From Hormiphora californensis (taxonomy: Eukaryota; Animalia; Ctenophora), in contig CM035359.1 of the NCBI GenBank assembly GCA_020137815.1, positions 2,852,001-2,916,000 on the forward strand: a stretch of DNA of 64,000 nt. The letters run 5' to 3'. A program made the translations under genes and the position numbers. The notes under the pieces were generated by a model that saw only the letters and a list, made by a program, of their open reading frames with translations, was not told the DNA's origin and searched no databases. Shown here in pieces: positions 5,253 through 63,798 of this stretch. Each line of letters opens with the position of its first letter. Positions within the stretch are counted from its first letter, which is position 1.

Positions 5253-6347
5253 TCACAGTCCAGTGTCCTGTGTATTTTGACTGTTTTGAATGACTACAGG
5301 AACTCCCGGCCTAGTTGGCTGACTACCTGTTCCCGCTACTGGCTGACTACTTGTGTGTGCCTCCCTCCCTCCACCAGTGATCCTATCAGCTACCCATGCT
5401 GCATATTTGGGTATCCTAATCAGGTAGACCACTGGGTTGACAGCGGCGTTCACACAGGGAAGCACGGCTCGTGTAAGGGGCCATGCGTACCAGTACATGA
5501 ACACTGTCATAAAGTGTGGTTTAGGGTAGGTACCAGCCATCATGTCCATCAGGTAGTAAATATCAATCACAATGAAAGGTGCCGTGGTTACTAGGAAGAT
5601 TCCAGTAAGCGTTGCTATGGTAACTGTAGCTCGCCGACTTCTGGAGCTTCCTGAGCCGTGGTTTCTTCGGAGTAGGTAACCAGCGGACACAGCGAATGAA
5701 AGTAGAACGATGCAGGTAGGGATTATGTAGGAAAGGTTGGGGAGAAGCTCCCAGAGTTGATCATTATCGAATTCTGGGACGTTGGGATTCGAGACGAAGG
5801 TACAGTAGACCGTCGAAGTGGAATACTCCAGTTTGTAGCTATCCTTGGTGGTGAGCGTGAACGTGACACCCTCAATAATCGTGTAGACAGCCCAAACTCC
5901 TATTGCAATAAAGATATATCGTCTCTGTAACCGGATGTACGGCCTCAATATCACCACAATTCTCGAGGCACTCAACACAAGTGTGAGGAAGAGGGACGCC
6001 TCCAGGAGGGTGCCCCAAACAGTGGCCCAACCGTAACATAAAGGCTGGGAGTGGAACCACCTCGGTTCACGGTTAGCTAACAGGGACACCAAGACTGGGA
6101 TACCACACAGACCCGTCAGCAGGTCAACCCCACACATGAACATGTACACGCACGTGGCAATGTCCTTTTTAGGGGACCGGAGGGTGAAGTAGTAGAGTGC
6201 GGTGGCGTTACCAGGGACTCCGATCACTGTTGCCAGGAAGATGGTGAGGGCTAGAATGTGGTCCCAGTTCCGGTGTTCTGGGTAGTAGAGGACGATGGGG
6301 AGGAAGAAGACGTGGGGATTCCATACTTCCGGAACGAGGGACACCAT
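5253..6347 (-). CDS. Single-exon orphan rhodopsin-like (class A) GPCR, 364 aa
   Basis: Seven hydrophobic segments; GN in TM1, Asp in TM2, Cys at the top of TM3 (PLCYGW), SASR at the DRY position, P in TM6 (TTAPF), NPVVY in TM7. Confidence 0.9.
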   Translation of the reverse strand: MVSLVPEVWNPHVFFLPIVLYYPEHRNWDHILALTIFLATVIGVPGNATALYYFTLRSPKKDIATCVYMFMCGVDLLTGLCGIPVLVSLLANREPRWFHSQPLCYGWATVWGTLLEASLFLTLVLSASRIVVILRPYIRLQRRYIFIAIGVWAVYTIIEGVTFTLTTKDSYKLEYSTSTVYCTFVSNPNVPEFDNDQLWELLPNLSYIIPTCIVLLSFAVSAGYLLRRNHGSGSSRSRRATVTIATLTGIFLVTTAPFIVIDIYYLMDMMAGTYPKPHFMTVFMYWYAWPLTRAVLPCVNAAVNPVVYLIRIPKYAAWVADRITGGGREAHTSSQPVAGTGSQPTRPGVPVVIQNSQNTQDTGL

Positions 6348-13997: not shown

Positions 13998-15466
13998 ATG
14001 TCAAGACGTCTTCTTTCGTATACCTCCCGAGCACTCAAGTATACTGCAACTACCCGCTCCCTCTCGGCGCTCCCAGCATGCGGTGAGTAATATGCTTAAT
14101 GCGTTTATACATAATGCAGTTATATACAACATGGAAATTTTACTGAAGTCCAATTTACATACGGAGGTGTCGTGCATGGTATACCGTACATGTGGCAGAA
14201 AATTAATTTTTCCACTTTTTTCGCTTCAGCTTGTTCCAGCGGTCCACCGGTCCAGAGCTCTCCGCATTTCTACAGATCGCAGTACTGGAAGTGATGCTCC
14301 TTCATAAACACACCCTTCTCCCACCCCGTAGGTCACACCCCGGCACCCTATACCGGGCCATCTAAGGAGGAAGTCCTCAGTGTCAGAAAGGGCCATGTAA
14401 ACCCCGCAGTTCACCGACAAACGTTCTTCAGGGACCCACCACTATTCGTCGAAGGTAAGATAAATTCAATTCCTGCTCAGATCTCAATATTCAGAGTAAA
14501 ATATATGGTTTTATTTTTGTTCGTCACTTGCAAACTGGCATTGAGAAAATACTCCAGGTTCTAAAATGTAATAAAATCGCAGGAAAGGGCCAGTACTTGT
14601 TCGACGAACAAGGTGAGAGGTACCTGGATCTTATTGGCGGTATCTGCACCATCTCCGCCGGTCACAACCACGACAAGGTATAATTAATCTGATCTGAAGT
14701 TATCTCCAGGCTCCGATCCCTAAATTGTTGTTTGGCCCGGGCCAAACACCAATTTACGGATCGGCCCTTGTGAAGGTCGAGCTTTTTTACACCTGTGGCT
14801 AACCTTTAAATCTGGATGATCATCACATTTTAACCTCTGATAATCATCTCAGATTAATGGCAAGATTGCCGCCCAGCTGGGTACCCTGACACACACAGCC
14901 AACATCCTGCTACACCCCAACCTGTCCAAATACACCAAGGCCATGGCCAAGAAACTGCCCAAGGAGCTGAGCGTCATTTACTTCTGTAACAGGTGGGTGT
15001 GTTTTGTCCCAGTCATAATTCTGAACTAGTGACAATTGTTGGACGTTGGTGACAAAGGTTCCTCATAGACATTATAAAGCCTCGCTAGACCGACTCACCA
15101 GGAGTAAAATAAAACAACAGTCAACACGGCTGTTGATTATATTTTTGCTAACTCGTTATTCTTATCATAGTGGAAGTGAAGCGAATGATTTGGCAATGCT
15201 TATGGCTCGAGCATACACCGGAAATCTGAACATTGTTGGTAAGTTAACTTTGAGTTCTTGTTTTAAGTAGCCAGTCTTGTTCATTCATTCATTATTGTTG
15301 CACAGCACATATTGCTAGCCATATAAAAACCGGTTTTCACTGCACATGGTTACCCAGTTTAGATAGTGTCTTACTGCATATTGAGACACCGTCTTGTTTT
15401 CTTTAACTCATTGCAACTCATATTTTATCTCTCCCTCTCACCCCTCATACATAACCACGTTAGTCG

Positions 15467-15541
<75 letters not shown>

Positions 15542-18500
15542 CCCTCATACATATATGATAGCCATGCCACTTCTTCCCCAAGCTGTTTATTTAACCACCT
15601 TTCCTGGCCGATTTCCAGACGAGTAAAAACCGGTTTGAAAAAGACAACACTTCCCCCTTTACCTGTACTTGACTTTCTACAAATGTCGAACACCCTGAAA
15701 ATGATACTTTGTCATGCAGCAGTCGACGCTCCCCTTGAAAGTTGAAACCATCACGTGTGGACCTCAACATCTCCACTCCCCCCTCAAATCCACAGCTTAC
15801 CCCTCTCTCATACATATCCATTGGTGACACAGTCACCCCTCCACTACCAGCCACACAAGGGCGGCAAACGGAGGGGATGGCATCACCAATCATATCCATA
15901 GCTTCCCTGTTCTCATCCCACCCTCTCTCTTGTCAGGACTAAGAAGGGCTTACCACGGTGCGTCAGCATCCAACATCTCCCTCACTACACTACCTCTGTA
16001 CCGAGCTCGAACTATGCCAACAACCAACATCTCCCATACAATGAATGCTGACCCCTTCCGAGGTCTGTGGGGCGGCAGCAAATGCAGGGATGGCCCTTGT
16101 CAGGTGAGCTTGAGCAGAGTAAAGTTAGAGTATGAGATGTTGAAAATCAGATTTATAAATGATAAATCAGCAATTAAGATTGGATTTTATAGGCTTGAAA
16201 AATGAAAATCTACCTCATTCCTCCCTTTTTGCACACACCCTCATTATAACTCCCATTAATCTGCAGACACTGCGAAGCTGTGACTGTGTAGGGGATGAGT
16301 GTAATGCTGCGACTAACTACGCCGAACAGTACCGGGATCACGTGAGAACCATCTGTCCCCCTGGTGCTGGTCTGGCTGCCTTTATTGGAGAAGGTATCGG
16401 TGGGATGGGAGCCGCCCTTCAACAAACCAAGGGATTCTACAATAAGGTAAAGTGTGGTTACTATTAGAGTAACACGACTCAGACAGCTATTATAACAAGT
16501 GTGGGAATATATCATAGAGTAGAATTATAATGAAATGAAACAGGAAAAGGGCCGAATTATTATCTTATCGATGTAATATCTTTCCAGGTTTATGACATCA
16601 CAAAAGAGTATGGTGGTGTGAACATTATGGATGAAGTTCAGACCGGATTTGGAAGGCTCGGTTCCCATTATTGGGGTTTCGAGTATCACGGCGTTATGCC
16701 TGATATTATCACTGCCGCAAAAAGTAAGTTCTTTATTCTCGAATCAATTACCAAATTGAATACGAGAATACGGGACGGTAAACCAGCCCTCCAACCTGCA
16801 GGTATCGGTAACGGTTTCCCGCTTGCCATGTGTGCCACAAGTCCTGAGATTGCGGAGGCCTTCGCTAATAGCTCCCTTCACTTCAACACCTTCGGTGGAA
16901 ATGCTCTACAATGCGCTGCTGGCCTAGCCACCTTAGAGGTAGGTGCAATATGGTTCATCATCTGTTATTCGGTTGAAGTCCATTTAATAGTTTTTATGGT
17001 TTAAAAGTCGTGCATGGTCTGGTTAGATAGTATTTTTCCTCATGCTTTGTATTCTGAAACCACTGTTAGGTGCAGACTGGTGAAATCTCATTTTCGGCCC
17101 GTCAGATAACCGTTAATTTCTTGGCAATTTTCCAACCCCCCCCCCAAATATATGGCACTCTCCCAACCATTGTCATATGATATTATTATATCATGTACCG
17201 ACGACGGTGGTGAGCATGTGTCTTTTTCTGAGAACTGAAAATGGGAAAGATAAACAGAGACGCATAATTCGATTCAACGTAGGAGACGCATATATTTTCC
17301 CGCTTTTCTCTCTCTCCCGCTTTTCTTTAAAACCGGTTTTACAAACTTGCCTGCGGTGTTGATTACATAGCCTCTTGTCTCGCCCGTAATTCTAAAATTG
17401 AATCAGATATTACATAATATGCATATCGCATCGTATAAATTTATGCAGCGTGCAGTTTAATTTTTTTGCTAGAATATTCTGAATTATAGATCTTGCAACG
17501 TGGATCTATAGCTTTATTCAACCTGAGTTAGATATATCACTAGACTGGATATCTCTCCAGATTTTATGATCACTGATCAAGTTGATGTTTATCTAATACG
17601 CTGGTAACACATATAAGTATGAGAGAGTTCACCATATGATATACATCATCCATTGCAGGCTATTGAGGAGGATGGACTCCAAGAAAACTGTGCATTGGTA
17701 GGAACTCATTTCCTGGAGGGATTCAACAAACTTCGAACCAAACACGAGATTGTCGGGGATTGCAGGTAATTTTTCCCTGCCCGGGTGAATGCCGAAGGCA
17801 TTCACCCGGATGCCTTTTTACTTTGTAAAAAGGCATAGCAGGGTTAGAATTCGAAAACGACATTTTGGTATACTAACTAATCGGTAGAGGGACATTTTTT
17901 GGTCACACTTTCGTTGCGAGGGGCAACGGTGTAGCAACTAGAGCCGCGCACACAGTGACGAGCTGCTCCTTTATCAAACACCTCATTGACACAGTTTGAT
18001 GGACGTGTGTGCGCGCGCCACTCAACAAAACATGACATGCGATGCCGCGTGTTACATACACATTGTCATCTTGCGAGTCGAGTGTGAAAGGTTAGATAAG
18101 TAGTTAAGTTGGAATGTCAAAAGCTAGTTAGCAAGTGTCATGTGAGTTAGCTAAGCTATGTGAGAAGTATACCGACAGCTAGATCGTATGCTTCTCACAT
18201 TACATTATGACCAAGCCTTGATCCTATTGGTAGTGACAATGTCAATGTCACTGTCAGTGTCACTGACATGTGAAACGGTAGGGCAGGGAAACTCAGCATT
18301 ATGAATACATAATGCAATAATTCTTGTTACTTAAATTGAGCGATCTAGGTCTTGTAATCTTATACGACGTACTAAGTACGTGTGTCTCCTGTCTATAGAT
18401 AGACCTATAATAATATGGATCGCCGCTTTTCTTCCCTATTTATAAACAATTTCCATAATTTCAGAGGTAAAGGATTGTTCATGGCGATGGAACTTGTGAC

Positions 18501-18977
18501 TGATAAAGCAAGTAACAATCCCCTCCCCGTTTATCACATTATGGCATTGTTGGAGGCACTCAAGGTATATACTTCTTCATAAAGTACATAAATATTTCTT
18601 ATTGCGGTACTCCTTTATCAATATTTACAATGCTCCTTCATAAAACTATCTTTCCACAGGACCGCAGATGCATCTTCGGACGTGGTGGTCTATTTGGTAA
18701 CTGTCTACGTATTCAGCCGCCTATGTGTGTTACCCTAGAAGATGCAGATTACACACTCGCTGCTTTGGATGCGGTAAGAAATACATTTTATCCTAGAACA
18801 TTTTCTGTCAGTCTGTCTCCGTAAAATGCTAACGATGTTATCTAATTTGTCACTGGTATCTTCAAACTGATACACTGTTTGTCTTCCTGTTCTTTATCAC
18901 TATTCATTCTTTTCCAGGTCCTTACTGAATACACAGAGGGGAAACTCGATGTAGAGTCGTTCAACCCCAACAAATAA
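13998..18977 (+). CDS. AGXT2: Alanine-glyoxylate aminotransferase 2-like class III PLP aminotransferase, ~503 aa, with predicted mitochondrial presequence
   Basis: 13 in-phase GT-AG exons: 13998-14082, 14332-14454, 14583-14677, 14853-14992, 15171-15238, 15937-16103, 16267-16446, 16588-16723, 16802-16938, 17659-17765, 18465-18564, 18660-18773, 18918-18977. Motifs: [39 protein letters not shown] (PLP lysine), [16 protein letters not shown]. It has the Cys-rich [14 protein letters not shown] insert typical of animal AGXT2. N-terminus [23 protein letters not shown] is Arg/Ser/Leu-rich with no acidic residues. Confidence 0.92.
17770..18328 (+). mobile_element. Helentron/DINE-1-like (HINE) non-autonomous element in AGXT2 intron 10
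   Basis: Sub-terminal inverted repeats TTTTCCCTGCCC ... GGGCAGGGAAAA, a 5' hairpin CCGGGTGAATGCCGAAGGCATTCACCCGG, and a 3' stem-loop GCATTATG-AATA-CATAATGC. Related copies at ~43040-43261 and 57484-58120. Confidence 0.6.
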
Positions 18978-19287
18978 TTATTGACTCATAGTGAGTCACA
19001 CAGAAATGCAAGACCCTTCTAGAACTTATCAAAACAGGAACAATTGATTATTATTATTATGTTGCACCGTTGTTAAGTGTTTTGTGTTTTTATCCGACCA
19101 TCCCTGATGTTGAATTATATTATTTACCATGGATCCATTTTTAGAAAAGTTACAGTGTTTTTATTAGAATTTAGGTCCCCACCTCCCCGTAAACGCAATT
19201 CAAATACCCGTCCCATAAACTCCCTATCCGTATCCTTTAATTAACCAATGTTTAACCTGATCTCCTAATAGTTAGCAAATAAGAAAT

Positions 19288-22200
19288 ATGGCAGGAAGAT
19301 CGATCATTGGTCGAGCACTAAATACGAGCAGGCCCTCCCTCGGTGCAGCACCCGCTGTGGCAGTCAGTCCTGCTACACAGGAACAAACAGTGAGTGAACT
19401 GTTGGAGTGTTGAAAACATGCCAATTTGTTGATTAGCTTTTGATTTTCACCCTTTCAATTTACATTACCCCCCCCCCCTGTAGTTTGAACAGAGATCAGA
19501 ACCAAGACATTACAGTGAGCCGGTGAGGATGACTGCTAGTGAGGCCCTAGTTGAGACCATGGCCAGACAGGGTGTGGAGAAGTGTTATGGGATTGTGGGG
19601 AGTGCCTTCATGGACGCCCTGGACATCTTCCCCGAGGCAGGCATCCGATTTGTTGCTGGTATGTTAGTTTTTGGGGTTCGGGAATACCTCTCCTTCATGT
19701 TTCTTTATTTTAGAACCCAATTATATCCATATGATATTACTCAGATAGTTTCAATGACCTCCTTCCTTACCCCGTAATCTCCCAACAGTGCAACACGAGC
19801 AGAATGCAGCACACATGGCTGACGGGTATTCAAGGATCAGTGGGAAACATGGTGTTTGTACCGCCCAGAATGGACCAGGTACATAGCAATCACAAAGTTA
19901 ACGTTGGGCATAAAAAATGTCCCCCCTAGACTAGCATAGTTCCAGATATCGTAGAGCTCTAAAATTTTACACAGTTACTCTATGGGGCAAATAAATAGGT
20001 TCCACAAAATTTCAGACTTTTAGCTCAAAGTTCATTTTTTTTATCGGAATGAACATTATCATTCATTCCAAAAAACATGATTTTTCGGTCCAGAAGTCAA
20101 GCAATTGTTTTTGGCTGTCAATTTTCTTTCAAATGCGACCAAGAAAAGCCCAAACGGACAACCACAAGGCAAACAGTGGTCATGTTTCTGACTGTTAGTC
20201 AGGTCATGTGATCCCCACCGAATCGTGTAAGTTATTCTGAATTGCTAATCAGGATTAGTTGTGGAGAATCACGTATCACAGCCGCTAATGAGGGATGACG
20301 ATGATGATTGGCCATGAGATCCGAAGCTCATTAACAAGTCACCTCTTTACCCAAGTGCTCCCGAATCACATATCGCTTCTTCGATACACATCCCTCATTA
20401 GCGACTGTGATACGTGATTCTTCCCTACTAAGCCTGATTAGCAATTCACGATTCGGTGGGGATCACATGACCTGACTAACAGTCAGAAACATGACCACTG
20501 TGTGCCTTGTGGTTGTCCGTTTGGGCTTTTCTTGGTCGCATTTGAAAGAAAATTGAGAGCCAAAGACAATTGCTTGACTTCTGGACCGAAAAATCATGTT
20601 TTTTGCAATGAATGATAATGTTCATTCCGATAAAAAAAATGAACTTTGAGCTAAAAGTCTGAAATTTTGTGGAACCTATTTATTTGCCCCATAGAGTAAC
20701 TGTGTAAAATTTTAGAGCTCTACGATATCTGGAACTATGCTAGTCTAGGGGGGACATTTTTTATGCCCAACACGTTATGATCATAACACGTGCATTGTAC
20801 TCCATTGCATGGATATTCTCACCAATTCCATATCACAAAGCAGATCCAATCCAAGCTTCTCACAGACAATGTCTTTTTACAGGTATCAGTAATTTTGTGA
20901 CCGGCATTGCAGCGGCTTACTGGGCCCACTCCCCTGTTATCGCCCTGACCCCAGAGGCTAGCACTATGACCAAGGGACATGGCGGCTTCCAAGAGGTCGA
21001 TCAACTACCACTTTTCGAGGTGAGCTGAAATAATTAGGTTTAATTAATTCAATTTGAATTTGGATTATAATTAGAGAGAAGAAGAATAGAAAGTATGTTG
21101 TATGATCAGTTTGAGTTGCTTCTACCATATTTACAGGTTTTTATCCCCTCCTGATCCTCCCCTGTTTTCACTTTTCAGCCCATTACGAAGTACCAAGGAC
21201 ATGTGAATAACCCCGCCCGAATGGCTGAGATTACAAACAGGGCATTTGACATTGCCATGGCCGAGCGAGGCCCAACACAAATCAACTTTCCTCGGGACTA
21301 CCTCTATTATGAAGGTAAATATTGGGGGAACAAGAAAGAGTTAAAGAAACTGAAAAAATGAACCCTCATTTCCAAATGTTCGCTCCAATAATCCTATAAT
21401 CATGATACTTAAGTTTATGACACATGTGCTTCCTACGATACAGGTGACTACCAGATCCCCAAGCCCACAATCCCTGAGAAGGGTGCCGGTGGCCCCAAAT
21501 CAATCCTGGCTGCCGTTGAACTGATCAGAAGTGCAAAGAATCCAGTTATTCTTGGTAAGTCCTAAGAGATAATGGTAGGTACTTTATTGTGATCAATTCT
21601 ATAGTTGGCAAAAACGAACAGTATTTACAACCAAGTCGAGGGTGTTGAGTAGCAATTGTTGAGATCAAATCACATGCGAAACTTTATTAAGTTGTAAACC
21701 TAGTAACCTCTGTAACTCTAGTTTAACCTTTCTTCTTCCCCCTCTCTAGCTGGTGGCGGTGTTACGATGGCGGGAGCTGAGGCCCAAGTTGCCCAGCTGG
21801 CATCCCTCCTATCAGCCCCTGTTGCAGTCACCTACCTTCACAATGATGCCTTCCCCGCTGATCACCCCCTGTATGCTGGAAGTCTGGGTTATCAGGGATC
21901 TCAAACTGCCATGCATTCCATCAGGTACTGCTGGAGATAAAGTCTCGATTCAAATATCTCGTGGTGAATCGGGCACTTGAATTGCCATATATTGAAAACA
22001 TGATGGTTTTTATATTTTCCAGAGAGGCAGACGTTGTGATTGCCCTTGGTACCCGCCTGTCACCCTTCGGCACTCTTCCTCAGTATGGAGAGGAATACTG
22101 GCCCAAAAATGCCAAAATCATTCAGGTTAGTAGCCGAACTATTCGAATCAGGACTCATGATAGGAAGCTTTCATCATTGATTGTTTGTGTCAATCTAAAC

Positions 22201-25021
22201 AAATCGTTTGCTGATAATATCAGTGATATACCATCCCAGCTAATTCTTCTATGATACCATCCCATAATAGTTGATTCCTAACATACTTTACCATATTACA
22301 GGTAGAGGTTGATCCTCGCCGAATTGGCCTTACCAAAAATGTCGATGTTGGCATTTGTGGAGATGTGAAACTCGCTACCGAGGAACTCACCACCCAACTG
22401 AAGGATGGTGGTTTTGCATGTATGGAAACCGTGGGAGAGCGACTTGAAACCCTTTCCAAGGTGAGATACAAGTGGGCCAGGGATGTTGATGTGCGGTTAT
22501 CCGTTGTGTGCAGCATAACGATTTATTACAATTGTATCTCATGCTGCTATAACTCATGCCCTCATCTTGTCAGTTTGTTGAATTTGCTAGTTTTGTGTTG
22601 GCGTTATACACAGACCTGATCCTATACCTTAAATCTATCTACTACCTCCCTAACTTCTTCTATACCTCCCATCTAACTTCTTCCCAATCTCCTTTTTCAT
22701 TTCTTTTCTTTTTCTGTCAATTTTTACTGTTTCCGAAGTCTATCTAATCCAAAATCCCTTTCTAGAATTATACTTTCTAATTTCTGCTGTTCTCCCATTC
22801 TTTTTCCATCCACTCCCTCAATTATCCTCTGATCTATTGTTTTAAATCTTCTTCCCTCCCTCCCAATATCTTTCATCATACCTCTGAACTCTCGTCTCTC
22901 TTCCTTCTATCATTCGAACTCCTTCCTTGCCCCACTCCGCTCCAGTATTCTAATCTCTAAGATTAAAATATTTTCGGATTTTCCTATCCAACCTTTTTAT
23001 ACTTTCCTTTTCTTCTTGAAACCCATATTTTTTTTCAAAAAGATAAACCCTACTCAACTGCTACCACCGTCAAAGAAACACGGTTTCAAAACCTGTTCTA
23101 CTATCTCCAAAAGCCAAAGATCAAAACTCCCCCCATTCAAACGGGGCCTGGAATTTCTCGGAACCGATAAAACCCACGGATTCAAAGATTTTCATCCTCT
23201 CTCTTTCTTTCCATCCTCTCTCTGTGTTTTTCGCCGACACACTCCTCTCTCATCCTCTCTGTTCGTTATCTCTCTCTCTCTCCCATATCGCACGGTGTTG
23301 TCTACCTTTATATGCTACAGGTGTTAGGTGTTCCAGATGGTCGGGCGGTGTCAACAACCAGTATCCTGAGTAGCCGGTCCTGAGCCCGTATTCTACGGTA
23401 TTTATTCCCGATGGTATCTACTTAATTAAAAGCTTTAATAATATCAAGCTTTTTACAAAATCTTTGAATAAATTTCACCCATGTACACAAGATATACTCA
23501 TTCACGAGCCCCTGGGAGAAGCTGCGGGAAGGAGGGGGAACTAGCTCGTCCAAAACAGAAACAATCTCTCTCTCTAACAGTGCTCCTAAGAAGGGGATTT
23601 GTGGGGGATGGCAATACCGGGTTGGTTCACTGGTGGTGGTGTAGTTACACCTCTTTGCTCACGTACTCCGTTTCAGAGACGAATCACGTGGACTTCAAAC
23701 CTGGATGCCATGACAAATGCCCATGTCGGCAGCTCCACCCCAGATCGGGTGAGGCCGAGACAGGCCCTCAGGGAGCTGGAGCTTGCCATGGAGAGGGATA
23801 GCATTGTCAGCACTGATATTGGAAATATCTGTAGCGTTGCCAATAGTTACCTCAAATTCAGGTAAGCATTTCCATTTTTTCAGATCTAGATTTGTTTATC
23901 CCCTCTTAGCATATAACCGCGACCGATTGACCATCATCATTTGCTGCATCATTCCGCCCTCTCCAATCTTCTAACACTAACCCTGACTATTCTTCCAGCC
24001 ACGTCGGTCCCAGTATGTTGGCAGCGATGACCTTTGGTAACTGCGGTTACTCTCTACCTGCTGTAATGGGAGCCAAAACAGCAGCGCCCCACCGAAACTG
24101 TGTCAGCTACTCTGGAGATGGTGCATGGGGCATGCAGCTCAATGAGGTATGTATAATAGTTCTTACTATGCGGGGAGGGAGTAGTACTTTTCTCAATGAG
24201 GTTCTTATCATATTTGACTGGGGCCGGGGTAAGAAGGGGGTGCATCATATCGTATCTCATATCCTTCCTCCACTGAATAAGCTCACCCCGTCCCCTCCCT
24301 CCCCCTCAGATCATGACGTGTATCCGTGAAGAGATCCCTGTGACAGCTGTTGTCTTCAACAATGGACAGTGGGGAGCCGAGAAGAAAAATCAGGTACAAT
24401 AATTTCATACGGCTGTCAGACCATGGTGTGTCAGCTCTCGTGCACTTTTAGAACTCGGGATCCATGCGTTGTGGTACAGCTCGTGCTATAAGTAACGATG
24501 TGGAAGAATGGGGCCGTGGTGTAATTAATAATTACTAATAATAATTACTAATTATCCATCCCTTCACGTGCAGGTGCTCTGGTTTGGTGATCGTTACATC
24601 GGGTCCCAGCTGAAGAACCCCTGGAGCTATGCAGAGATTGCCCGATCAATGGCTGCTGAAGGAATCACCTGCACCCACGTAGATCAGGTATAGATACACC
24701 AGTGATCTGGGTTGTCACCATGGCAACTTAGTCACCATGGCAACCCGGAACCCCCCCATGGCAATTTAGAATTGGATCTCGCTCACATAATATGTCCATG
24801 TCACCGATCTCCTCTCCCCTCACTAGGTTGGCGATGCTCTCCGAACTGCCAGTCAGAACCAGAGGGATGGAAAAACCACCGTTATTGAGATCATGGTTAC
24901 CAAAGAACTGGGGGACCCCTTCAGACGGGACGCCATGAAGCTACCTTTCCGACATTTGGAGAAATTCCATAGCACCATTCAGACCTCAGAGAGCGAGTCG
25001 GGCCAGCCCACAGACTTGTGA
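19288..25021 (+). CDS. xsc: Sulfoacetaldehyde acetyltransferase (ThDP-dependent desulfonase, EC 2.3.3.15), ~637 aa, with presequence-like N-terminal extension
   Basis: 14 in-phase GT-AG exons: 19288-19389, 19484-19658, 19789-19878, 20883-21019, 21179-21314, 21444-21554, 21750-21924, 22023-22125, 22302-22460, 23677-23861, 23999-24146, 24310-24393, 24574-24687, 24827-25021. Xsc-type strings: [104 protein letters not shown]...[22 protein letters not shown]. Confidence 0.9.
19903..20771. mobile_element. ~870-bp palindromic (foldback) insertion in xsc intron 3
   Basis: Arms ~19903-20296 and ~20392-20771 are near-perfect reverse complements (GTTGGGCATAAAAAATGTCCCCCCTAGAC... / ...GTCTAGGGGGGACATTTTTTATGCCCAAC). 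TSD not clearly resolved. Confidence 0.8.
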
Positions 25022-47574: not shown

Positions 47575-50500
47575 TTAAGTCATCATAAGGCTGTCCTGGT
47601 CAAAAAATTCTTCAATCTGGTCCTCAGAGAGTCCAACTTTCTCCAGGACCCCTCGGAAGGTCCGTTCGTCAATTGCATCACCTTTGGTTTCCTGAAAAGA
47701 GGTTGGTGTTCGGTTCGGGGCGATTGTCAGCGCAGGTCGCCATTCGAATATGGAAACAAAGCTACTGAAATGCTGTACTTTTAACAGATGCGCGCACTTG
47801 CGCGTACCTGTCGTTCGAAGAGAAACGGTCTCTCATCAATTTTGGCCTTCATTCGATCCAACTGTATTTTGTACTCCAACTCCTTTGCTTTTTGCACCTC
47901 GCTGTAACAAAATAATGGAATTTGAAATCAACTTTATCGTTAGATGTCATGGCAAGAAATCTAAAGTGAGCTGACAGTATTCAAAACAGGAAACTCTTAC
48001 ATTTTCTGTCGCAGTTGGTCTGATTTGGAGTTGGATGGGGGAGTTTTTCCCTGTCTCGCTGCCATCTCCTTACGTAGATCCATCGTTCTCATCCTCGTTA
48101 CCAGTTCCTTTTCTCTCTCCTTCTCCTCTTTCTCCTTCTCCTATTATAGGAGGAATATAATACATGTTACTAAACGTCTAAACGTTAAAACTAGGAAAAA
48201 CAATCCAAACGAACACACAAACAGATTTGTTCAGTGTTCCTGTTAGCTGTTTAAACAGAAACAAATCTCGATATATTGCTAACCTGTTGTAGCCTCTGTT
48301 TTGTAAGAGAATCCCGTAGTGTACTGCTAACTGTTGGACGACTCTCAGCAACAAGCTCGGGGTACACTCCTGTAGGGGGGAGGGGGACATTTGGAGCTGG
48401 TAGTTGTATTTGAGTGCGGGAGGGAACTCTAAAATTTTAAATTATAATATTTAATTTCATAATTAATTAAAAATTTAATTAAATAACAAAATGTCTCCAA
48501 CCTGTATAATGAAATTGTTTCATTTCACTCCTAACTCTCTCCCCCTCAGCCCCATTCTCCATGGCCTTCAGGGCTTGTTCCCTCTTCTTACATTCTGCAA
48601 GCAACTCAGTTCGCAGTGCAAATGGTTCCACAATGGTCGTGGGTTTGGTGATCTGTCTCCTGATTAGCGCTTCTTCCTCTTGTTTGTGCTGACATAAGGG
48701 GGGGGGGGGGGGGGGGTTAGGTCTAGGATGGGTTTGGGGGGGGGTTAGGATGGGGGGATTTGGGGTTAGGATGGGAGGATTCGGGGTTAGGATGGGGGAT
48801 TTGGGGTTAGGATGGGGGGATTCGGGGTTAGGATGGGTTTAGGGGAGTTGGTGTTAGGATGGGGTTAGGTTAGGAGAGGCGGAGTTAGATCAGCCGAGCA
48901 GTAACATTTGTTAACTGTGTCTCATCCAGCTCTGGATGTTGAATTTATCAGATCTTGTCAAGGCAGGTGTAACACATCAAGAGATGTCGAAATTTGAGAG
49001 CCGGGATGAAGATCACTCGCTTGCTATAATTGGTCCTCGCCCCTAAGCAAAATATATTTTGCTTAGGGGCAATTATAGCAAGCGAGATACATATAAAACC
49101 TATACTTCCCAGTTCCCAGTTCCCACATAAGTATACTGAGAAACATTTAATTATCCCTAAAAGGCTCCACATACATGTACATCTCTCACTTCTAGGAGAG
49201 AGGGTCCCCCATGATAGTATACTTGGGAATACGAAGCCTATGAATAAAGTGGAACATATTTCATAGTATGCCTCCCCCACCAAGACCATTAGACAAACCC
49301 AATTCTCATCAAATTTCCAACTTGAAGTTGTTTCATAGACTCTCGATTTGGCAAAAATACACTGCTCATTACAAATCACCAGTAGATAAAGATCAGAAAG
49401 AGTTTTATCTTACCAGAAGCTCAAAGTCAGGTATAAAATTTCTAATAACGGGGTTGAATGTGTGTTCCTCCGTCAAATGTGCCCTCTTTTCACGTTTCTC
49501 CTGCGCTGCTCTCCTAATCTTACCATCTGAAGTTAATTAATTAATTAATTAATGAGTCATTATACTAATTAGAATTTACTGGTAATTTCACATGCAGAAG
49601 CTTTACTCAAACTGTATTCAGTCAAACCTCGATTCACCAGACTACTCGGGGTTTGTACGCTAAATCGAGGTCCGGTAAATGGAGATTTGACTGCATTTAA
49701 CAAACAAAGTACGAACCAGTGTAGTGTAAACTATGTCTTTTCATAGAGCTGGGTAGATCACTTTTTGCCAAGAGCTGTTCAGATCTCATTTTCATCCTAA
49801 TTTCCCTGTACGCCTCTTCCTCTCTCATCTTTTCTTCAACTTCGCCACTGTAAAATGTAGGGTATTAATGATCTAATTCATTAATGATCAAATTTATTGC
49901 TAGTTTAGCGACCAAGTGGTTTACCAAGAGAGTACCAATAAAGCTCCTAACTGTTCAAAAGAGATCTATACAAGTATTAAACTCGTAATAAGACTAAGAT
50001 TTACCACAGAAAACTCACTCAAACAGATGGTAAGGAAAGGGTCGGGCTGAGAATCTCTGTGGTTGAGGTGCCGCGGTTGCCTGCTGTTTCCTCTCTCCAT
50101 CTCCATCGAGTGCTGACAATGATCTACTTCTTTTGATAGCTGCTCTCTCGTCAAAAGAGAAGGGTTTTTGTAGAGCTTTCGTTAGAGTTTTCCGGTCCGA
50201 TTTGACTCGTTCTCTTCTCGCGTCCTGGAAAAAAAAATGAAAGTGCAGTACGACCACGATTTACCGGGAGGATAAACTTCCCCCAGGAAATTAACGGTAT
50301 TTGACCCCGATTTACCGAGCAAAACCCGAGCATCCTGGTAACTCGGGGTCCAACTGTAACTCTTAGAAGACTACAGAGCGAAGGAGCAAGATAAAAGGGC
50401 GTTATTAAAAAGGGATGGTTGATATAGGTGTGTTATAAATAACCCTGTTACTGTACAGCTGCTCTGTAAGGTATAAATGATATAAAATGAAACCTATAAA

Positions 50501-52399
50501 TACCCTCCCTCCATCAATATGCAAGATTTTACACCTTGATCTAAAAATACAAAATAAATCAAGTAAAAACCTTGATTCGCTTGACATTGTGTCCGTGCTC
50601 GAATAAAAAGAAAGTATGAACAATTCAATAAAAACCTGTCGTTTTTGTAGACTGTGCAGGCGATTTTCAAAGGTAGAAGGAGGTATTGGGGATGCTTTAA
50701 ACTGTTTTTTACACTCAGCTTCTTCTACCATTTCCCGCTCTAATTTCTTCATTTCCGCCTCTATCTGTGGAAAATGATTGTATTTCAACACCATGTAAAG
50801 TGTGAATAAAGTTTCAAAAAATATTTGAATTGTTAGCTCTAAGCACCTGGTTTTTAGTCTTGGTTGGTTTCTTTAACTCATCTCGCAGTGTCATAAAGAA
50901 CGGATCGGGTACAGTTACCCGTGGCCTCCGAGGTCGAGCTCGTTTAGGTGGGGCAGAATACGATTTGTGGGTTACTTTTTGTGGTTCCCGGGGGGCGTAT
51001 TTATCAATGGTGAAATCTTTCCACATGTCAGATACAGTGGTGTTCTGAGATGACTGAAATGTGTGGAAATTATGTTATGGTGGCAAAGATTAGTAAAACC
51101 GATAAAATCAAACATACTGCCTCACTCCTAGCTTCACTGTTTGCTTTGTAGAGTAATTTGCAGCCAGTTTTATTGAAACTTACAAGACGAGGAATATCAC
51201 ATGTGGAGTTGAGAGAGTAATCAGGCACACAGTCCGCCAGAGTGGTCTGATCTGCAGCTGCTGATGTTGCATTGTTCTCTGTCGCAGTTGATGCTCCCCC
51301 AATGGTCGTGTTTCCCTCGACATACTCCCTATCGATTGACAAGTTTAGTCGGAATATCGAATGTATCTTTAGATGGGGGGGGGGGGGACATGTTAATTTT
51401 GTTAACTTTGTTAATATTAACATCGAGAAAACAGGTGATTTATTAACAAAATTAACAAAAAGTTAACAAACGTTAACAAATGCCATTTATGCCATCTAAA
51501 TCCCCTTTAGTATTAGCACGTATTTTTAGTATTTAACACTTGTTCTGCGAGCAAAGTTGTTCATTCTGTACGATTTACATACCCCTACTACCTCTACTAC
51601 GGCTTTTCTACAGCGATTTATTCCATTTTGTTAATGTTAATAAATACTAGCCAAACTAAACCGCAATTGAAGTCAAATGAGCCTAATCCACATTTTCGCA
51701 CCCTAAAAACTAAATAAGACTCATGAATTTACCTTAAAACGAAAAATATCCCAAAAATCTATTTTTCTAAAAAAACACAAGGATTTGTAGCGAAGCAAAT
51801 TTTCAATCCTTGACCAAAAAATTGATTTTGGGAAAATTTTATTTCTTTTTTCAACAGAAACGTTGTACATCATCTTATTAAGTTCAAAGAATCGATTACT
51901 AATTTAAAAATTACGTTTAAGTGAGATTTTATACGCTAAATTGAAATATTTGTAACTTTTGGAATTTTATCGATTTTGAGCCAAAAAACCTGTATGTCGG
52001 ACTTTGGTTATCGGAAAAGGCCTTGTTTGGGTATATATGTGTTAGATAATTCATTAAACTATAAAATTAAACCAGTTAAAGTCGTATTATCAACCAATAA
52101 GAACAGTCTTTTAGCATTTGTTAATTTTGTTAATTTTGTTAATTAACGTTAATTAACAAAATCGAAAAAAGAGGTGATTTATTAACAATTAACATGTCCC
52201 CCCCCCCCTTTAGATTCAAATTAAAGTTCTTCTAGGTGAAAAATGAAATTGGTACTCACCTGAAAGACACGGATGATTTGGGAGCTATAAAACTCTCATA
52301 CAGGTCCTTGTATAGTTCGACTGTTTTGCTTTGGCGAGTTCTCAGCTCGGTAATTCTCTCCAAACTGCTCACGTTTGTCATATCAATGTCAGATGCCAT
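47575..52399 (-). CDS. FAM161: FAM161A/B-like ciliary/centriolar microtubule-binding protein (~12 exons)
   Basis: Exon translations MASDIDMTN..., MWKDFTIDKYAP...VTVPDPFFMTLRDE, EEAECKKQFKASPIP, ALQKPFSFDER, FSARPFP, EEEAYREIRMKMRSEQLL, C-terminal FRGVLEKVGLSEDQI. These match the FAM161 (UPF0564) pattern as recalled. Confidence 0.85.
48700..48873. repeat. ~20-bp tandem repeat GGGGTTAGGATGGGGGATT(T/C) immediately upstream of a FAM161 3' splice site
   Basis: Directly visible; sense-strand unit contains CCTAAC. Confidence 0.85.
51375..52207. mobile_element. Intact ~830-bp copy of the G-run TIR element in FAM161 intron 1
   Basis: (G)nACATGTTAATT ... AATTAACATGT(C)n with 8-bp TSD CTTTAGAT. Confidence 0.85.
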
Positions 52400-61590: not shown

Positions 61591-62571
61591 GGATGGAGGA
61601 TAAGCATGGAAGATGCCCACACAACACAACTCAGTATAGGGGGTAACACGAGAACTAACTTTTTCGGAGGTACGTTTCAAACCCCCTCCCGGCTCCCCCT
61701 GTTTCAAATGTTCCATTCAACTTTATTTGTTCCATTCTCACGATATCGACTAGATCTACACTCATTCGTAATCGTTTAACCTTTCCTCTGTGCCCTAATT
61801 CTCCCCTGCTCCCTCTCTGATTCCTGATCCCTAATTTTCCAAATATAATATTCCCATCCCCTCCCAGTATACGATGGGCACGGTGGATCCCAATCAGCCT
61901 ACTACACACAGGAGAATCTACACAAAAAGATAACCAGCCAGCCTGCATTCAAGAGCGGTAATGTTGAGGAAGCCCTAGTAAAGGCATTCGTGGAGCTCGA
62001 TAAGGATATGCAGGAAGGTAAGAGAGTTGGGTGAGATTTTGACTTTTGGAGCGAGATTTTGACTTTTGGGGCGAGATTTGAGTTTTGGGGCTTGGGGTGA
62101 GGTTTGGGCTTGGGGTGAGGGCTTGTTTTGGGAAATTTTTAGGGCTGGTCTAGACTCCCAATAATTGTCTAGCAGCCCCAACACCTTTCCTGTCCTCTGA
62201 ATAGTACCACTTCAAGTTCCAACTTCCATTCACGTTCAAACTAGAAGTTCTAGTTCCCAATTTCATTCCCATAACCGGAAAAGGGATACAACAAAACATG
62301 TTCACCCTCTTTATTCACCCTCTTTATTCACCCTCTTAATTCCTGTCTCAGATTCAGAATGTCGCTTCACAACCTCTGGCTGCACTTCTGTGGTAGTGAT
62401 GACACGAAATAACCAGATCTACTGTGCTAATTGTGGTGATTCAAGGGCTGTGTTGAGTGAAAGAGGTCAAGCTATCCCGCTATCTTTCGATCATAAACCG
62501 GGAAATGAGGGTAGGTAGTAGAACTTTTCGGTGGCTCTATCTATCTATCTATATATCTCTATCTTTCTCTT

Positions 62572-62653
<82 letters not shown>

Positions 62654-62660
62654 GTCTGTC

Positions 62661-62726
<66 letters not shown>

Positions 62727-63798
62727 TCTATCTCTCTCCCCCATTCTTCTACACACTACTATCCCTACGCTTATTGCACCACAGTTTCAATCAAATCGCG
62801 ACTCAATAACCTCTCCCCTGCAGAAGAACTATCGCGAATCAAAGCAGCCGGGGGTTTCGTTGAATTTAACAGAGTCAATGGTACACTAGCTCTCTCCCGG
62901 GCACTGGGTGATTTCGAGTTCAAACGTGGTAACCTGGCTCCTAAAGACCAAATGGTGACAGGTAAATTATTTAATTTGATAATTATTTTTTAATAATTTA
63001 TTTAATATTTCTTATCATTGATTGCATATACTATTAGAAAAGACCAAGATGAGGGGAGAAGTCGGTATCCGAGGTTCCTAAGATGTTTTTATTAAACAAA
63101 CACAAGCAAACAAACAAATCAAGTTCCGAGTCTGAACAGCGCAAGGGTCGAACGAGTAAATTTTGAACTCAAATATATCCGTTTGGCGTGTTTGGTTGGA
63201 GGGCGCGGTGAGTGGCGCGCATGGAAAGTACACCAAATACAGCGCGCTGTGTTATGGGGCACTGTTGGTGGGATGTGAATTGTCCCTGGAGCAAAGCGGT
63301 GTGGGTGGGGCCCCTGAGAGAGGTGTGTCATGTGGGAGCCGTGAGAAGGATAAAGGAGGAGAGATAGTGTGAGAATCGATGATACCTTGTTGCTACTCAA
63401 CAAATGATACCACCCTTTCTCTCCGCAGCGGTGCCGGAAGTGACAGTAACACCGATGAACGAAAACCAAGAATTCATTGTGCTAGCGTGTGATGGTATTT
63501 GGGATGTTCTGACAAGGCAAGAGGTGGTCGATTTCATCAGACCTAAGTTGGCCGAGGGCCAAAATCCTAGCAGGGTAAGAATTGAGCTTTCGTTTTACTA
63601 GATTTTGCCTAAACTTGACCCTAAAATTAGCCATGTCTTATCTCTAGTTGTAAATTTTCCAGGACCGGTTTGATTCATTTTTCATGACCCTCTCCGCAGA
63701 TATGTGAAGCGATATTGACGCGTTGTTTGGCCCCTAGTACAGCTGTCGGAGGGCTAGGATGTGATAATATGACCATAACTTTAGTTTCTCTTATGCAG
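61591..63798 (+). CDS. Protein phosphatase 2C (PPM family, Ptc2/ppm-2-like); first coding exon not found, 3' end runs out of the window
   Basis: Exons ~61591-61669 ([10 protein letters not shown]), 61868-62017 (VYDGHGG), 62352-62510 (SGCT...[11 protein letters not shown]...SFDHKP), 62824-62961 ([18 protein letters not shown]), 63429-63574 (LACDGIWD), 63700-63798 (GCDNMT). Confidence 0.92.

Follow-up and report, generated by a model that had tools for sequence, protein, structure and literature searches.

Here, we analyze two neighboring genes in a 64,000-nucleotide stretch of the genome of the ctenophore Hormiphora californensis (assembly GCA_020137815.1, contig CM035359.1, positions 2,852,001 to 2,916,000 of the forward strand; referred to as the window), of which one encodes a class III aminotransferase of the AGXT2 family and the other the thiamine diphosphate (ThDP)-dependent enzyme sulfoacetaldehyde acetyltransferase (Xsc). 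A preliminary description of this stretch, made from its letters alone, had proposed that the two genes form an operon-like pair for mitochondrial taurine desulfonation in an animal. We found that the gene pair is real, intact, and expressed. More importantly, based on sequence comparisons, we favor with moderate confidence the reading that the two enzymes would constitute a two-step mitochondrial route for taurine degradation, in which taurine is converted via sulfoacetaldehyde to acetyl phosphate and sulfite and for which the transaminase was recruited independently.

Exon models assembled from the window coordinates reproduce the gene structures and coordinates of the preliminary description, i.e., 13 exons for the aminotransferase and 14 for xsc (Table 1). 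The genes lie head-to-tail on the + strand with a stop-to-ATG gap of exactly 310 bp. All 25 introns have GT..AG borders, and neither gene has an internal stop. Based on metatranscriptome contigs of close relatives (mostly 90 to 99% alike; six runs from four studies), at least 17 of the 25 introns are joined in RNA, at least 8 of 12 in the aminotransferase gene (one joint being offset by one letter) and at least 9 of 13 in xsc. The Pleurobrachia bachei models are collinear with the window proteins, that of the aminotransferase (sb|3462102|) at 97.6% over 492 amino acids and that of Xsc at 97.7% over the last 342 amino acids; both models hold internal duplications, which the window genes do not have. 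Given the identity of ~98% to these models and matches of other open frames in the window to a rhodopsin-family receptor and PP2C, we regard the window as nuclear DNA of an animal, specifically a Pleurobrachia-like ctenophore.

The identification of the ThDP enzyme as Xsc was upheld, and the enzyme is a member of this family as judged by profile scores and conserved columns. The Mnemiopsis leidyi orthologue scores 808.2 bits on TIGR03457 (EC 2.3.3.15) with a cut-off of 676.4, and the Rhopilema protein scores 865.3 bits; these are scores of orthologues, to which the window Xsc is related by 74% identity in the case of Mnemiopsis and 98% in the case of P. bachei (P0001), the TIGR03457 score of the latter being raised by internal repeats. 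On the acetolactate synthase model TIGR00118, the Mnemiopsis protein (P0004) scores 349, i.e., below the cut-off of 538. The window Xsc is up to 62% identical to bacterial Xsc proteins and retains 209 of the 233 columns that are conserved at ≥95% in 63 full-length bacterial Xsc. The remaining 24 columns are changed mostly conservatively, and a few of the changes are common to ctenophores and cnidarians, e.g., Lys to Gln at 302 and Arg to Lys at 226. The motifs GSAF, YLHND, DIGN, WGAEK, and PFRRD are intact, and all catalytic motifs named earlier (the Glu in HEQ, GDG, and NN in Xsc, and the Lys in PDIITAAK in the aminotransferase) were found in the translations. A search of the PDB for Xsc returned no solved Xsc structure, the best match being BbmA (E 6e-62). 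Based on its family membership, the window Xsc very likely carries out the sulfoacetaldehyde-cleaving reaction.

In a FastTree phylogeny of 212 rows, 103 rows form one group that is separate from the bacterial rows, and in an IQ-TREE phylogeny of 50 rows, with 15 bacterial rows serving as the root, the eukaryote Xsc clade is supported at 100/100. In the latter tree, ctenophores, medusozoans, and three other rows, one of which is an acantharian transcript that could be prey-derived, form a subclade at 99/96; a purely animal Xsc clade is neither recovered nor rejected (approximately unbiased test, p = 0.43). The named members of the eukaryote clade are Rhopilema, Hydractinia, Clytia, Phyllostaurus, Stereomyxa, "Paraphys...", Polykrikos, Artemidia, and Symbiodinium, and most rows are environmental sequences without a species name. 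Bilaterian, sponge, and anthozoan names did not occur among the top 120 matches and the 19 Xsc clusters examined; this does not show that such animals lack Xsc. In RefSeq, Rhopilema, Hydractinia, and Clytia each have a protein labeled "sulfoacetaldehyde acetyltransferase-like"; these proteins are 66 to 70% identical to the window Xsc, fall in the same 99/96 subclade, and likewise have presequence-like N-termini. Their labels are automatic, and we located no study of them. We also considered that ctenophores alone had recently gained xsc from bacteria, an origin that the 100/100 eukaryote clade rules out. By phylogeny, the window Xsc is a member of an old and broad, presequence-bearing eukaryote lineage that includes jellyfish, hydroids, and protists, and not a fresh bacterial import; the earlier term "bacterial-type Xsc" thus holds with respect to the family but not with respect to a recent bacterial acquisition, since the protein is nested in an old eukaryote clade. 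A second Xsc lineage, represented by P0029 and P0337 (a 59-member metatranscriptome cluster), has presequence-like N-termini, does not have the C-terminal tail of the main eukaryote clade, to which it is the sister group, and is possibly an independent eukaryotic acquisition.

N-terminal extensions of at least 20 residues are present in 80 of the 103 eukaryote-clade Xsc rows, and 77 of these are presequence-like, compared with 24 and 19, respectively, of the 107 other rows; the test is a loose one of composition, which the latter 19 non-clade rows pass as well. The first 25 residues of the aminotransferase contain five basic and no acidic residues with a hydrophobic moment of 0.74, and those of the window Xsc contain three basic and no acidic residues. 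The N-termini of the orthologues are also presequence-like in composition. The earlier claim of presequence-like N-termini on both proteins is supported by these numbers, while their description as Arg-rich fits the aminotransferase and is a weaker fit for Xsc. From this composition, we infer that both enzymes would be imported into mitochondria.

By sequence, the aminotransferase groups with AGXT2 (alanine:glyoxylate aminotransferase 2/beta-alanine:pyruvate transaminase, PF00202), which is the nearest family and with which it shares the pyridoxal 5'-phosphate (PLP) residues Asp301, Gln304, and Lys331, Arg463, the Arg of the R-I-x-P-P motif, the cysteine-rich insert, and the predicted presequence. 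It is 66.7% identical to the Mnemiopsis orthologue and 45 to 50% identical to the best canonical AGXT2 matches. The window protein falls in a separate clade with a support of 1.0 and a stem of 0.46; the 29 rows of this clade make up 13 groups at 90% identity and are 60 to 70% identical to one another. Based on a HMMER search of 1.84 billion representatives, this subfamily is one 50% cluster (1022 bits) followed by a cluster at 477, with no intermediate relative. The tree was built without an ETNPPL outgroup and is compatible with both orthology to animal AGXT2 and an older duplicate. Named members are from P. bachei and Mnemiopsis only, suggesting that the subfamily is apparently restricted to ctenophores. 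Full-length subfamily members (P0127 and P0130) were also called on two ENA contigs, 188 kb and 26 kb in length, and may be intronless copies or paralogues.

Several positions distinguish this subfamily from canonical AGXT2. Gln271, present in 26 of 26 invertebrate and 7 of 7 bacterial rows, is Gly in 29 of 29 subfamily rows; Gly275 is Ala in 28 of 29; and Lys465 is Gln in 29 of 29. With Gly271 and Ala275, the canonical Gln-Gly-Val-x-Gly loop after Glu268 is not found in the subfamily. In addition, a two-residue insertion with Arg57 is present in 28 of the 29 rows, where all 80 other rows have a gap. Going by class III anatomy and published fingerprint numbering, we take these fixed changes to line the active site. 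In the active-site loops, the AlphaFold model computed for the Mnemiopsis enzyme has too low a confidence (mean pLDDT [predicted local distance difference test score], 61.8) to place them there. With this model, Foldseek confirmed the fold and ranked the phospho-lyases 6tor and 5g4i first; we discarded a phospho-lyase reading because these two are simply the closest relatives with a solved structure (33 to 35% identity), and their Lys-x-Lys/Arg motif corresponds to Arg-Ile-Gln here. By these comparisons, the enzyme is a divergent AGXT2-family subfamily member and not a canonical AGXT2. Thus, of the "host-type AGXT2" in the preliminary description, the AGXT2 type, as opposed to a Tpa (taurine:pyruvate aminotransferase) type, stands, while an ordinary AGXT2 does not.

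The orthologues of the two genes in Mnemiopsis are numbered consecutively (ACHWQZ_G001663/KAL5271079.1 for the aminotransferase and ACHWQZ_G001664/KAL5271080.1 for Xsc), and both records carry the same longest-contig figure of 13,041,538 bp. We take the consecutive locus tags as adjacency in this distant ctenophore, in agreement with the conserved linkage that the preliminary description had named as a test. According to the microsynteny section of Schultz et al. (PMC8527503), microsynteny between Hormiphora (Pleurobrachiidae) and Mnemiopsis is limited, no block exceeding four genes; because it is so slight, a kept pair is probably informative. A metagenome scan with the subfamily alignment over 2 of 64 parts detected no ctenophore locus, the best match having 45% identity.

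"Operon-like" fits the pair with respect to spacing only, i.e., the shared strand and the short gap. In contigs from four runs, we found none between 19069 and 19310, the first xsc contig starting at 19311; contigs of this kind cannot show an absence of bridging transcripts. A search of the window for leader-like motifs gave no matches, with 0.35 expected by chance. Because spliced-leader trans-splicing is common in ctenophores, accounting for at least 56% of the Hormiphora Iso-Seq reads in the part of PMC8527503 that treats them, co-transcription of the aminotransferase gene and xsc is possible.

The bacterial Tpa-Xsc-Pta route, as outlined for Bilophila, Ruegeria, and the sponge symbiont "Ca. 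Taurinisymbion" (pathway description in PMC10356861), likewise places an Xsc-family enzyme beside a class III PLP aminotransferase, and its chemistry is the same as predicted for the ctenophore pair. Unlike their bacterial counterparts, the ctenophore genes are nuclear and intron-rich, their products have presequence-like N-termini, and the aminotransferase is of the AGXT2 family. At bacterial xsc loci, a class III aminotransferase was present within 7 kb in 12 of 67 cases. All of these proteins are only 26 to 32% identical to the window aminotransferase, and a scan of the 11 full-length proteins assigned them to the PRK07678, AptA, or PRK06541 types, ruling out that the ctenophore pair is a remnant of an inherited bacterial operon. 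Five PRK07678-like proteins among them score 449 to 569 on PRK07678, while the Mnemiopsis aminotransferase (P0360) scores 199 with a cut-off of 488 and is, therefore, outside the 3N5M-like Tpa group. Accordingly, the window aminotransferase is not a Tpa by sequence, which is compatible with a Tpa-like function. We also considered Arg193 as a copy of the acid-binding Arg145 of Tpa; however, it is one position off, and most AGXT2 proteins have Lys or Arg there, so it is not diagnostic. Bacterial AGXT2-like genes lie beside genes for NCS1 permease, dihydropyrimidinase, PreA, and MMSDH (5 to 10 of 30 loci each), and this vicinity to reductive pyrimidine-degradation genes suggests that beta-alanine is the ancestral substrate of the family. 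Taurine is the sulfonate analogue of beta-alanine. Table 2 of PMC9418295 lists both as substrates of Bilophila Tpa (250 versus 95 mU/mg).

The taurine route is favored by the identity of Xsc, the linkage in Mnemiopsis, the genes beside bacterial AGXT2-like genes, the fixed changes in the subfamily, and the presequence-like N-termini; moreover, xsc has as its neighbor an enzyme of the class that supplies its substrate in bacteria. In this route, the AGXT2-like enzyme would transaminate taurine, with pyruvate or glyoxylate as the amino acceptor, to yield sulfoacetaldehyde together with alanine or glycine, and Xsc, with ThDP and phosphate, would convert sulfoacetaldehyde to acetyl phosphate and sulfite. 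Both steps would take place inside mitochondria after import of the two enzymes. Sulfite would pass to sulfite oxidase, and acetyl phosphate would become acetate, by acylphosphatase or spontaneous hydrolysis, or meet an unlinked Pta/Ack. While xsc would derive from the older eukaryote lineage, the transaminase would have been recruited from the host AGXT2 family independently of bacterial Tpa. Based on the linkage, the analogy to beta-alanine, and the fixed changes near the active site, taurine is a likely substrate of the aminotransferase.

Several observations weigh against this route. Ctenophore proteins are often fast-evolving, so the changes in the subfamily may have arisen without a switch of substrate, and a second, canonical AGXT2 may or may not persist in ctenophores. 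The linkage is read from locus-tag numbering in one further species, and xsc was present at none of the 80 AGXT2-like or related metagenome loci. Of the active-site fingerprint of Bilophila Tpa (Leu16, Trp47, Tyr129, Arg145, Gly185, Gly346, and Thr348; Table 1 of PMC9418295), with the 3DM numbers mapped onto the window protein by offsets from shared motifs, only positions 129 and 346 match, and both are common to all AGXT2. The other positions are Cys91 (47), Met273 (185), Gly455 (348), and Tyr192 (145), the last replacing the acid-binding Arg of Tpa, while position 16 aligns ambiguously. Finally, in agreement with the earlier statement that no pta lies in the window, tblastn of the window gave no match outside the two genes, although short exons limit its sensitivity. 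The queries were all open reading frames of 147 fetched loci, including those for Pta and alanine dehydrogenase. Unlike bacterial Tpa-Xsc-Pta loci, the window thus has no match to pta, alanine dehydrogenase, or a transporter gene.

The strongest competitor, which we nevertheless regard as unlikely, is that Xsc cleaves sulfoacetaldehyde while its neighbor is an ordinary, fast-evolving ctenophore AGXT2 acting on beta-alanine, aminoisobutyrate, and glyoxylate. The aldehyde would then come from another enzyme or sulfonate, such as isethionate, sulfoacetate, or sulfopyruvate, and the adjacency would be an old accident or reflect shared regulation. The mismatches to the Tpa fingerprint and the retention of Arg463 and Gly346 as in canonical AGXT2 speak for this explanation, as does the scarcity of aminotransferases near bacterial xsc, implying that Xsc is often fed otherwise; moreover, the genome is compact, and by eye another apparent + strand gene follows ~1.1 kb past the xsc stop. 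However, the fixed changes affect columns that are invariant from bacteria to invertebrates, and the pair is kept between lineages with little microsynteny. By a rough after-the-fact estimate that assumes 15 to 20 thousand genes, the probability of a chance neighbor from the feeding enzyme class is well under 1%.

It is also conceivable, although rather improbable, that the eukaryote Xsc has drifted in function, e.g., to coenzyme A as the acceptor, yielding acetyl-coenzyme A without Pta, or to another small aldehyde, and that the pair handles a relative of taurine such as hypotaurine or N-methyltaurine. This would fit with the lack of a pta match in the window and with the 24 columns that differ from otherwise invariant bacterial ones, a few of these changes being found in ctenophores and cnidarians alike; our PDB search gave no solved Xsc structure on which to place them. 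Nonetheless, the score of the orthologue lies well beyond the equivalog cut-off, most of the changes are conservative, and the motifs are intact. Bacterial contamination, or a recent transfer of a whole bacterial tpa-xsc operon, could be suspected from the identity of Xsc to bacterial proteins and the tight head-to-tail spacing. We consider both excluded by the introns and the trees and assign them a negligible probability: the introns are spliceosomal and spliced in RNA, the neighboring genes are of animal type, orthologues exist in P. bachei and Mnemiopsis, and Xsc lies inside the 100/100 eukaryote clade. A block transfer is further contradicted by the low identity of the aminotransferases beside bacterial xsc compared with that of the best canonical AGXT2.

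In the literature searched (mostly titles and the starts of abstracts, with supplements and subscription papers outside), we found no description of an animal Xsc or an AGXT2-Xsc pair. Sulfoacetaldehyde cleavage is treated as bacterial in the relevant passages of PMC11293860, PMC13436972 (a 2026 review), and PMC10356861 (on a sponge symbiont); a table in PMC5012681 includes Xsc reads among eukaryote-fraction transcripts, with hosts not named there; and "sulfoacet" is absent from the main text of the Mnemiopsis horizontal gene transfer paper PMC6005172, the supplements of which list genes by identifier and are outside this statement. The premise of the preliminary description that animals cannot cleave taurine has already been questioned in print for cnidarians: TauD-domain proteins were proposed for taurine catabolism in planula larvae (PMC12225738), the substrate being without direct evidence by the authors' own statement. 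There, too, an early-branching animal would break down taurine with enzymes of its own, but by a different chemistry (2-oxoglutarate dioxygenase) from that of the aminotransferase-Xsc pair. In the main text of PMC12225738, neither "sulfoacetaldehyde" nor "aminotransferase" occurs, although Clytia has an Xsc gene (XP_066916507.1; P0422), which could account for the taurine destruction postulated in that paper and would be an alternative to TauD, open to testing, for how Clytia larvae remove taurine. RefSeq already labels three cnidarian proteins as Xsc-like automatically. Work by Durham et al. from 2019 on sulfonate networks reportedly may cover eukaryotic xsc. The gene pair would represent an animal version of a pathway known from bacteria, the first step of which is probably convergent.

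If the taurine route is correct, then animals and eukaryotic plankton would join marine organosulfonate turnover (Xsc being present also in medusozoans and diverse protists), a metabolic gene pair would have been assembled convergently in an animal genome, and acetyl phosphate would be an animal mitochondrial metabolite; the pair supplies two concrete enzymes for assay. We speculate, as a tentative extension that falls somewhat short of probable, that ctenophores independently evolved their own taurine transaminase from AGXT2, linked and possibly co-transcribed with a mitochondrial Xsc of an old eukaryote lineage; that gelatinous zooplankton and eukaryotic plankton are an unrecognized, host-encoded sink for taurine within the marine sulfur cycle; and that Xsc may carry out the taurine destruction suggested to gate cnidarian larval settlement.

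Table 1. Coordinates of the aminotransferase gene, xsc, and the stretch between them (window positions)
Feature	Position	Strand	Basis or remark
AGXT2-family class III aminotransferase gene, ctenophore subfamily	13998..18977	+	Open frame, GT-AG introns, RNA joints, tree; 503 aa
Predicted mitochondrial presequence of aminotransferase	13998..14066	+	~22 residues, basic, amphipathic, no acidic residue
Aminotransferase exons 1-7	13998-14082, 14332-14454, 14583-14677, 14853-14992, 15171-15238, 15937-16103, 16267-16446	+	
Aminotransferase exons 8-13	16588-16723, 16802-16938, 17659-17765, 18465-18564, 18660-18773, 18918-18977	+	
PLP-binding Lys331 codon (PDIITAAK)	16720..16722	+	Lys in 29/29 subfamily, 26/26 invertebrate, 47/47 vertebrate, and 7/7 bacterial rows
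Intergenic stretch	18978..19287	.	310 bp; 3' untranslated region of aminotransferase gene reaches at least 19068; no AATAAA/ATTAAA (motif scan)
Candidate splice or trans-splice acceptor AG	19270-19271		16 nt 5' of xsc ATG; predicted by motif scan
Xsc (sulfoacetaldehyde acetyltransferase) gene	19288..25021	+	14 exons, 637 aa; TIGR03457 score of orthologue, kept columns, RNA joints
xsc exon 1, most of the 49-residue N-terminal extension before the bacterial Xsc start	19288..19389	+	Predicted presequence
xsc exons 1-7	19288-19389, 19484-19658, 19789-19878, 20883-21019, 21179-21314, 21444-21554, 21750-21924	+	
xsc exons 8-14	22023-22125, 22302-22460, 23677-23861, 23999-24146, 24310-24393, 24574-24687, 24827-25021	+	
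ThDP-activating Glu96 (HEQ, residues 95-97)	19797..19799	+	Motif in translation
GDG start of ThDP/Mg-binding motif (Gly497)	24114..24122	+	Motif in translation; NN motif also present

Elsewhere in the window, we noticed by eye an apparent multi-exon gene, rich in proline and in glycine/cysteine, on the + strand from about 26100; its largest exon has no match in Pfam. An intronless rhodopsin-family G protein-coupled receptor gene (7tm_1) lies at 5253-6347 on the − strand, PP2C exons lie at about 62200-63000 on the + strand, and at about 50400-50870 on the − strand there is a weak similarity to FAM161 that does not reach the Pfam cut-off; none of these three is tied to sulfur metabolism.

Three introns of the pair have features of their own. 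Intron 8 of the aminotransferase gene (16724-16801) is 78 nt long, in frame, and stop-free, and it is spliced out in RNA contigs of four of four runs. In intron 10, RNA contigs match a short stretch (17770-17884), probably a dispersed repeat, and then enter unrelated sequence. The bulk of the 1004-nt xsc intron 3 is a non-coding insertion (19903-20771) resembling a miniature inverted-repeat transposable element, with 325-nt terminal inverted repeats that are 99% complementary and an inner 60-nt pair.

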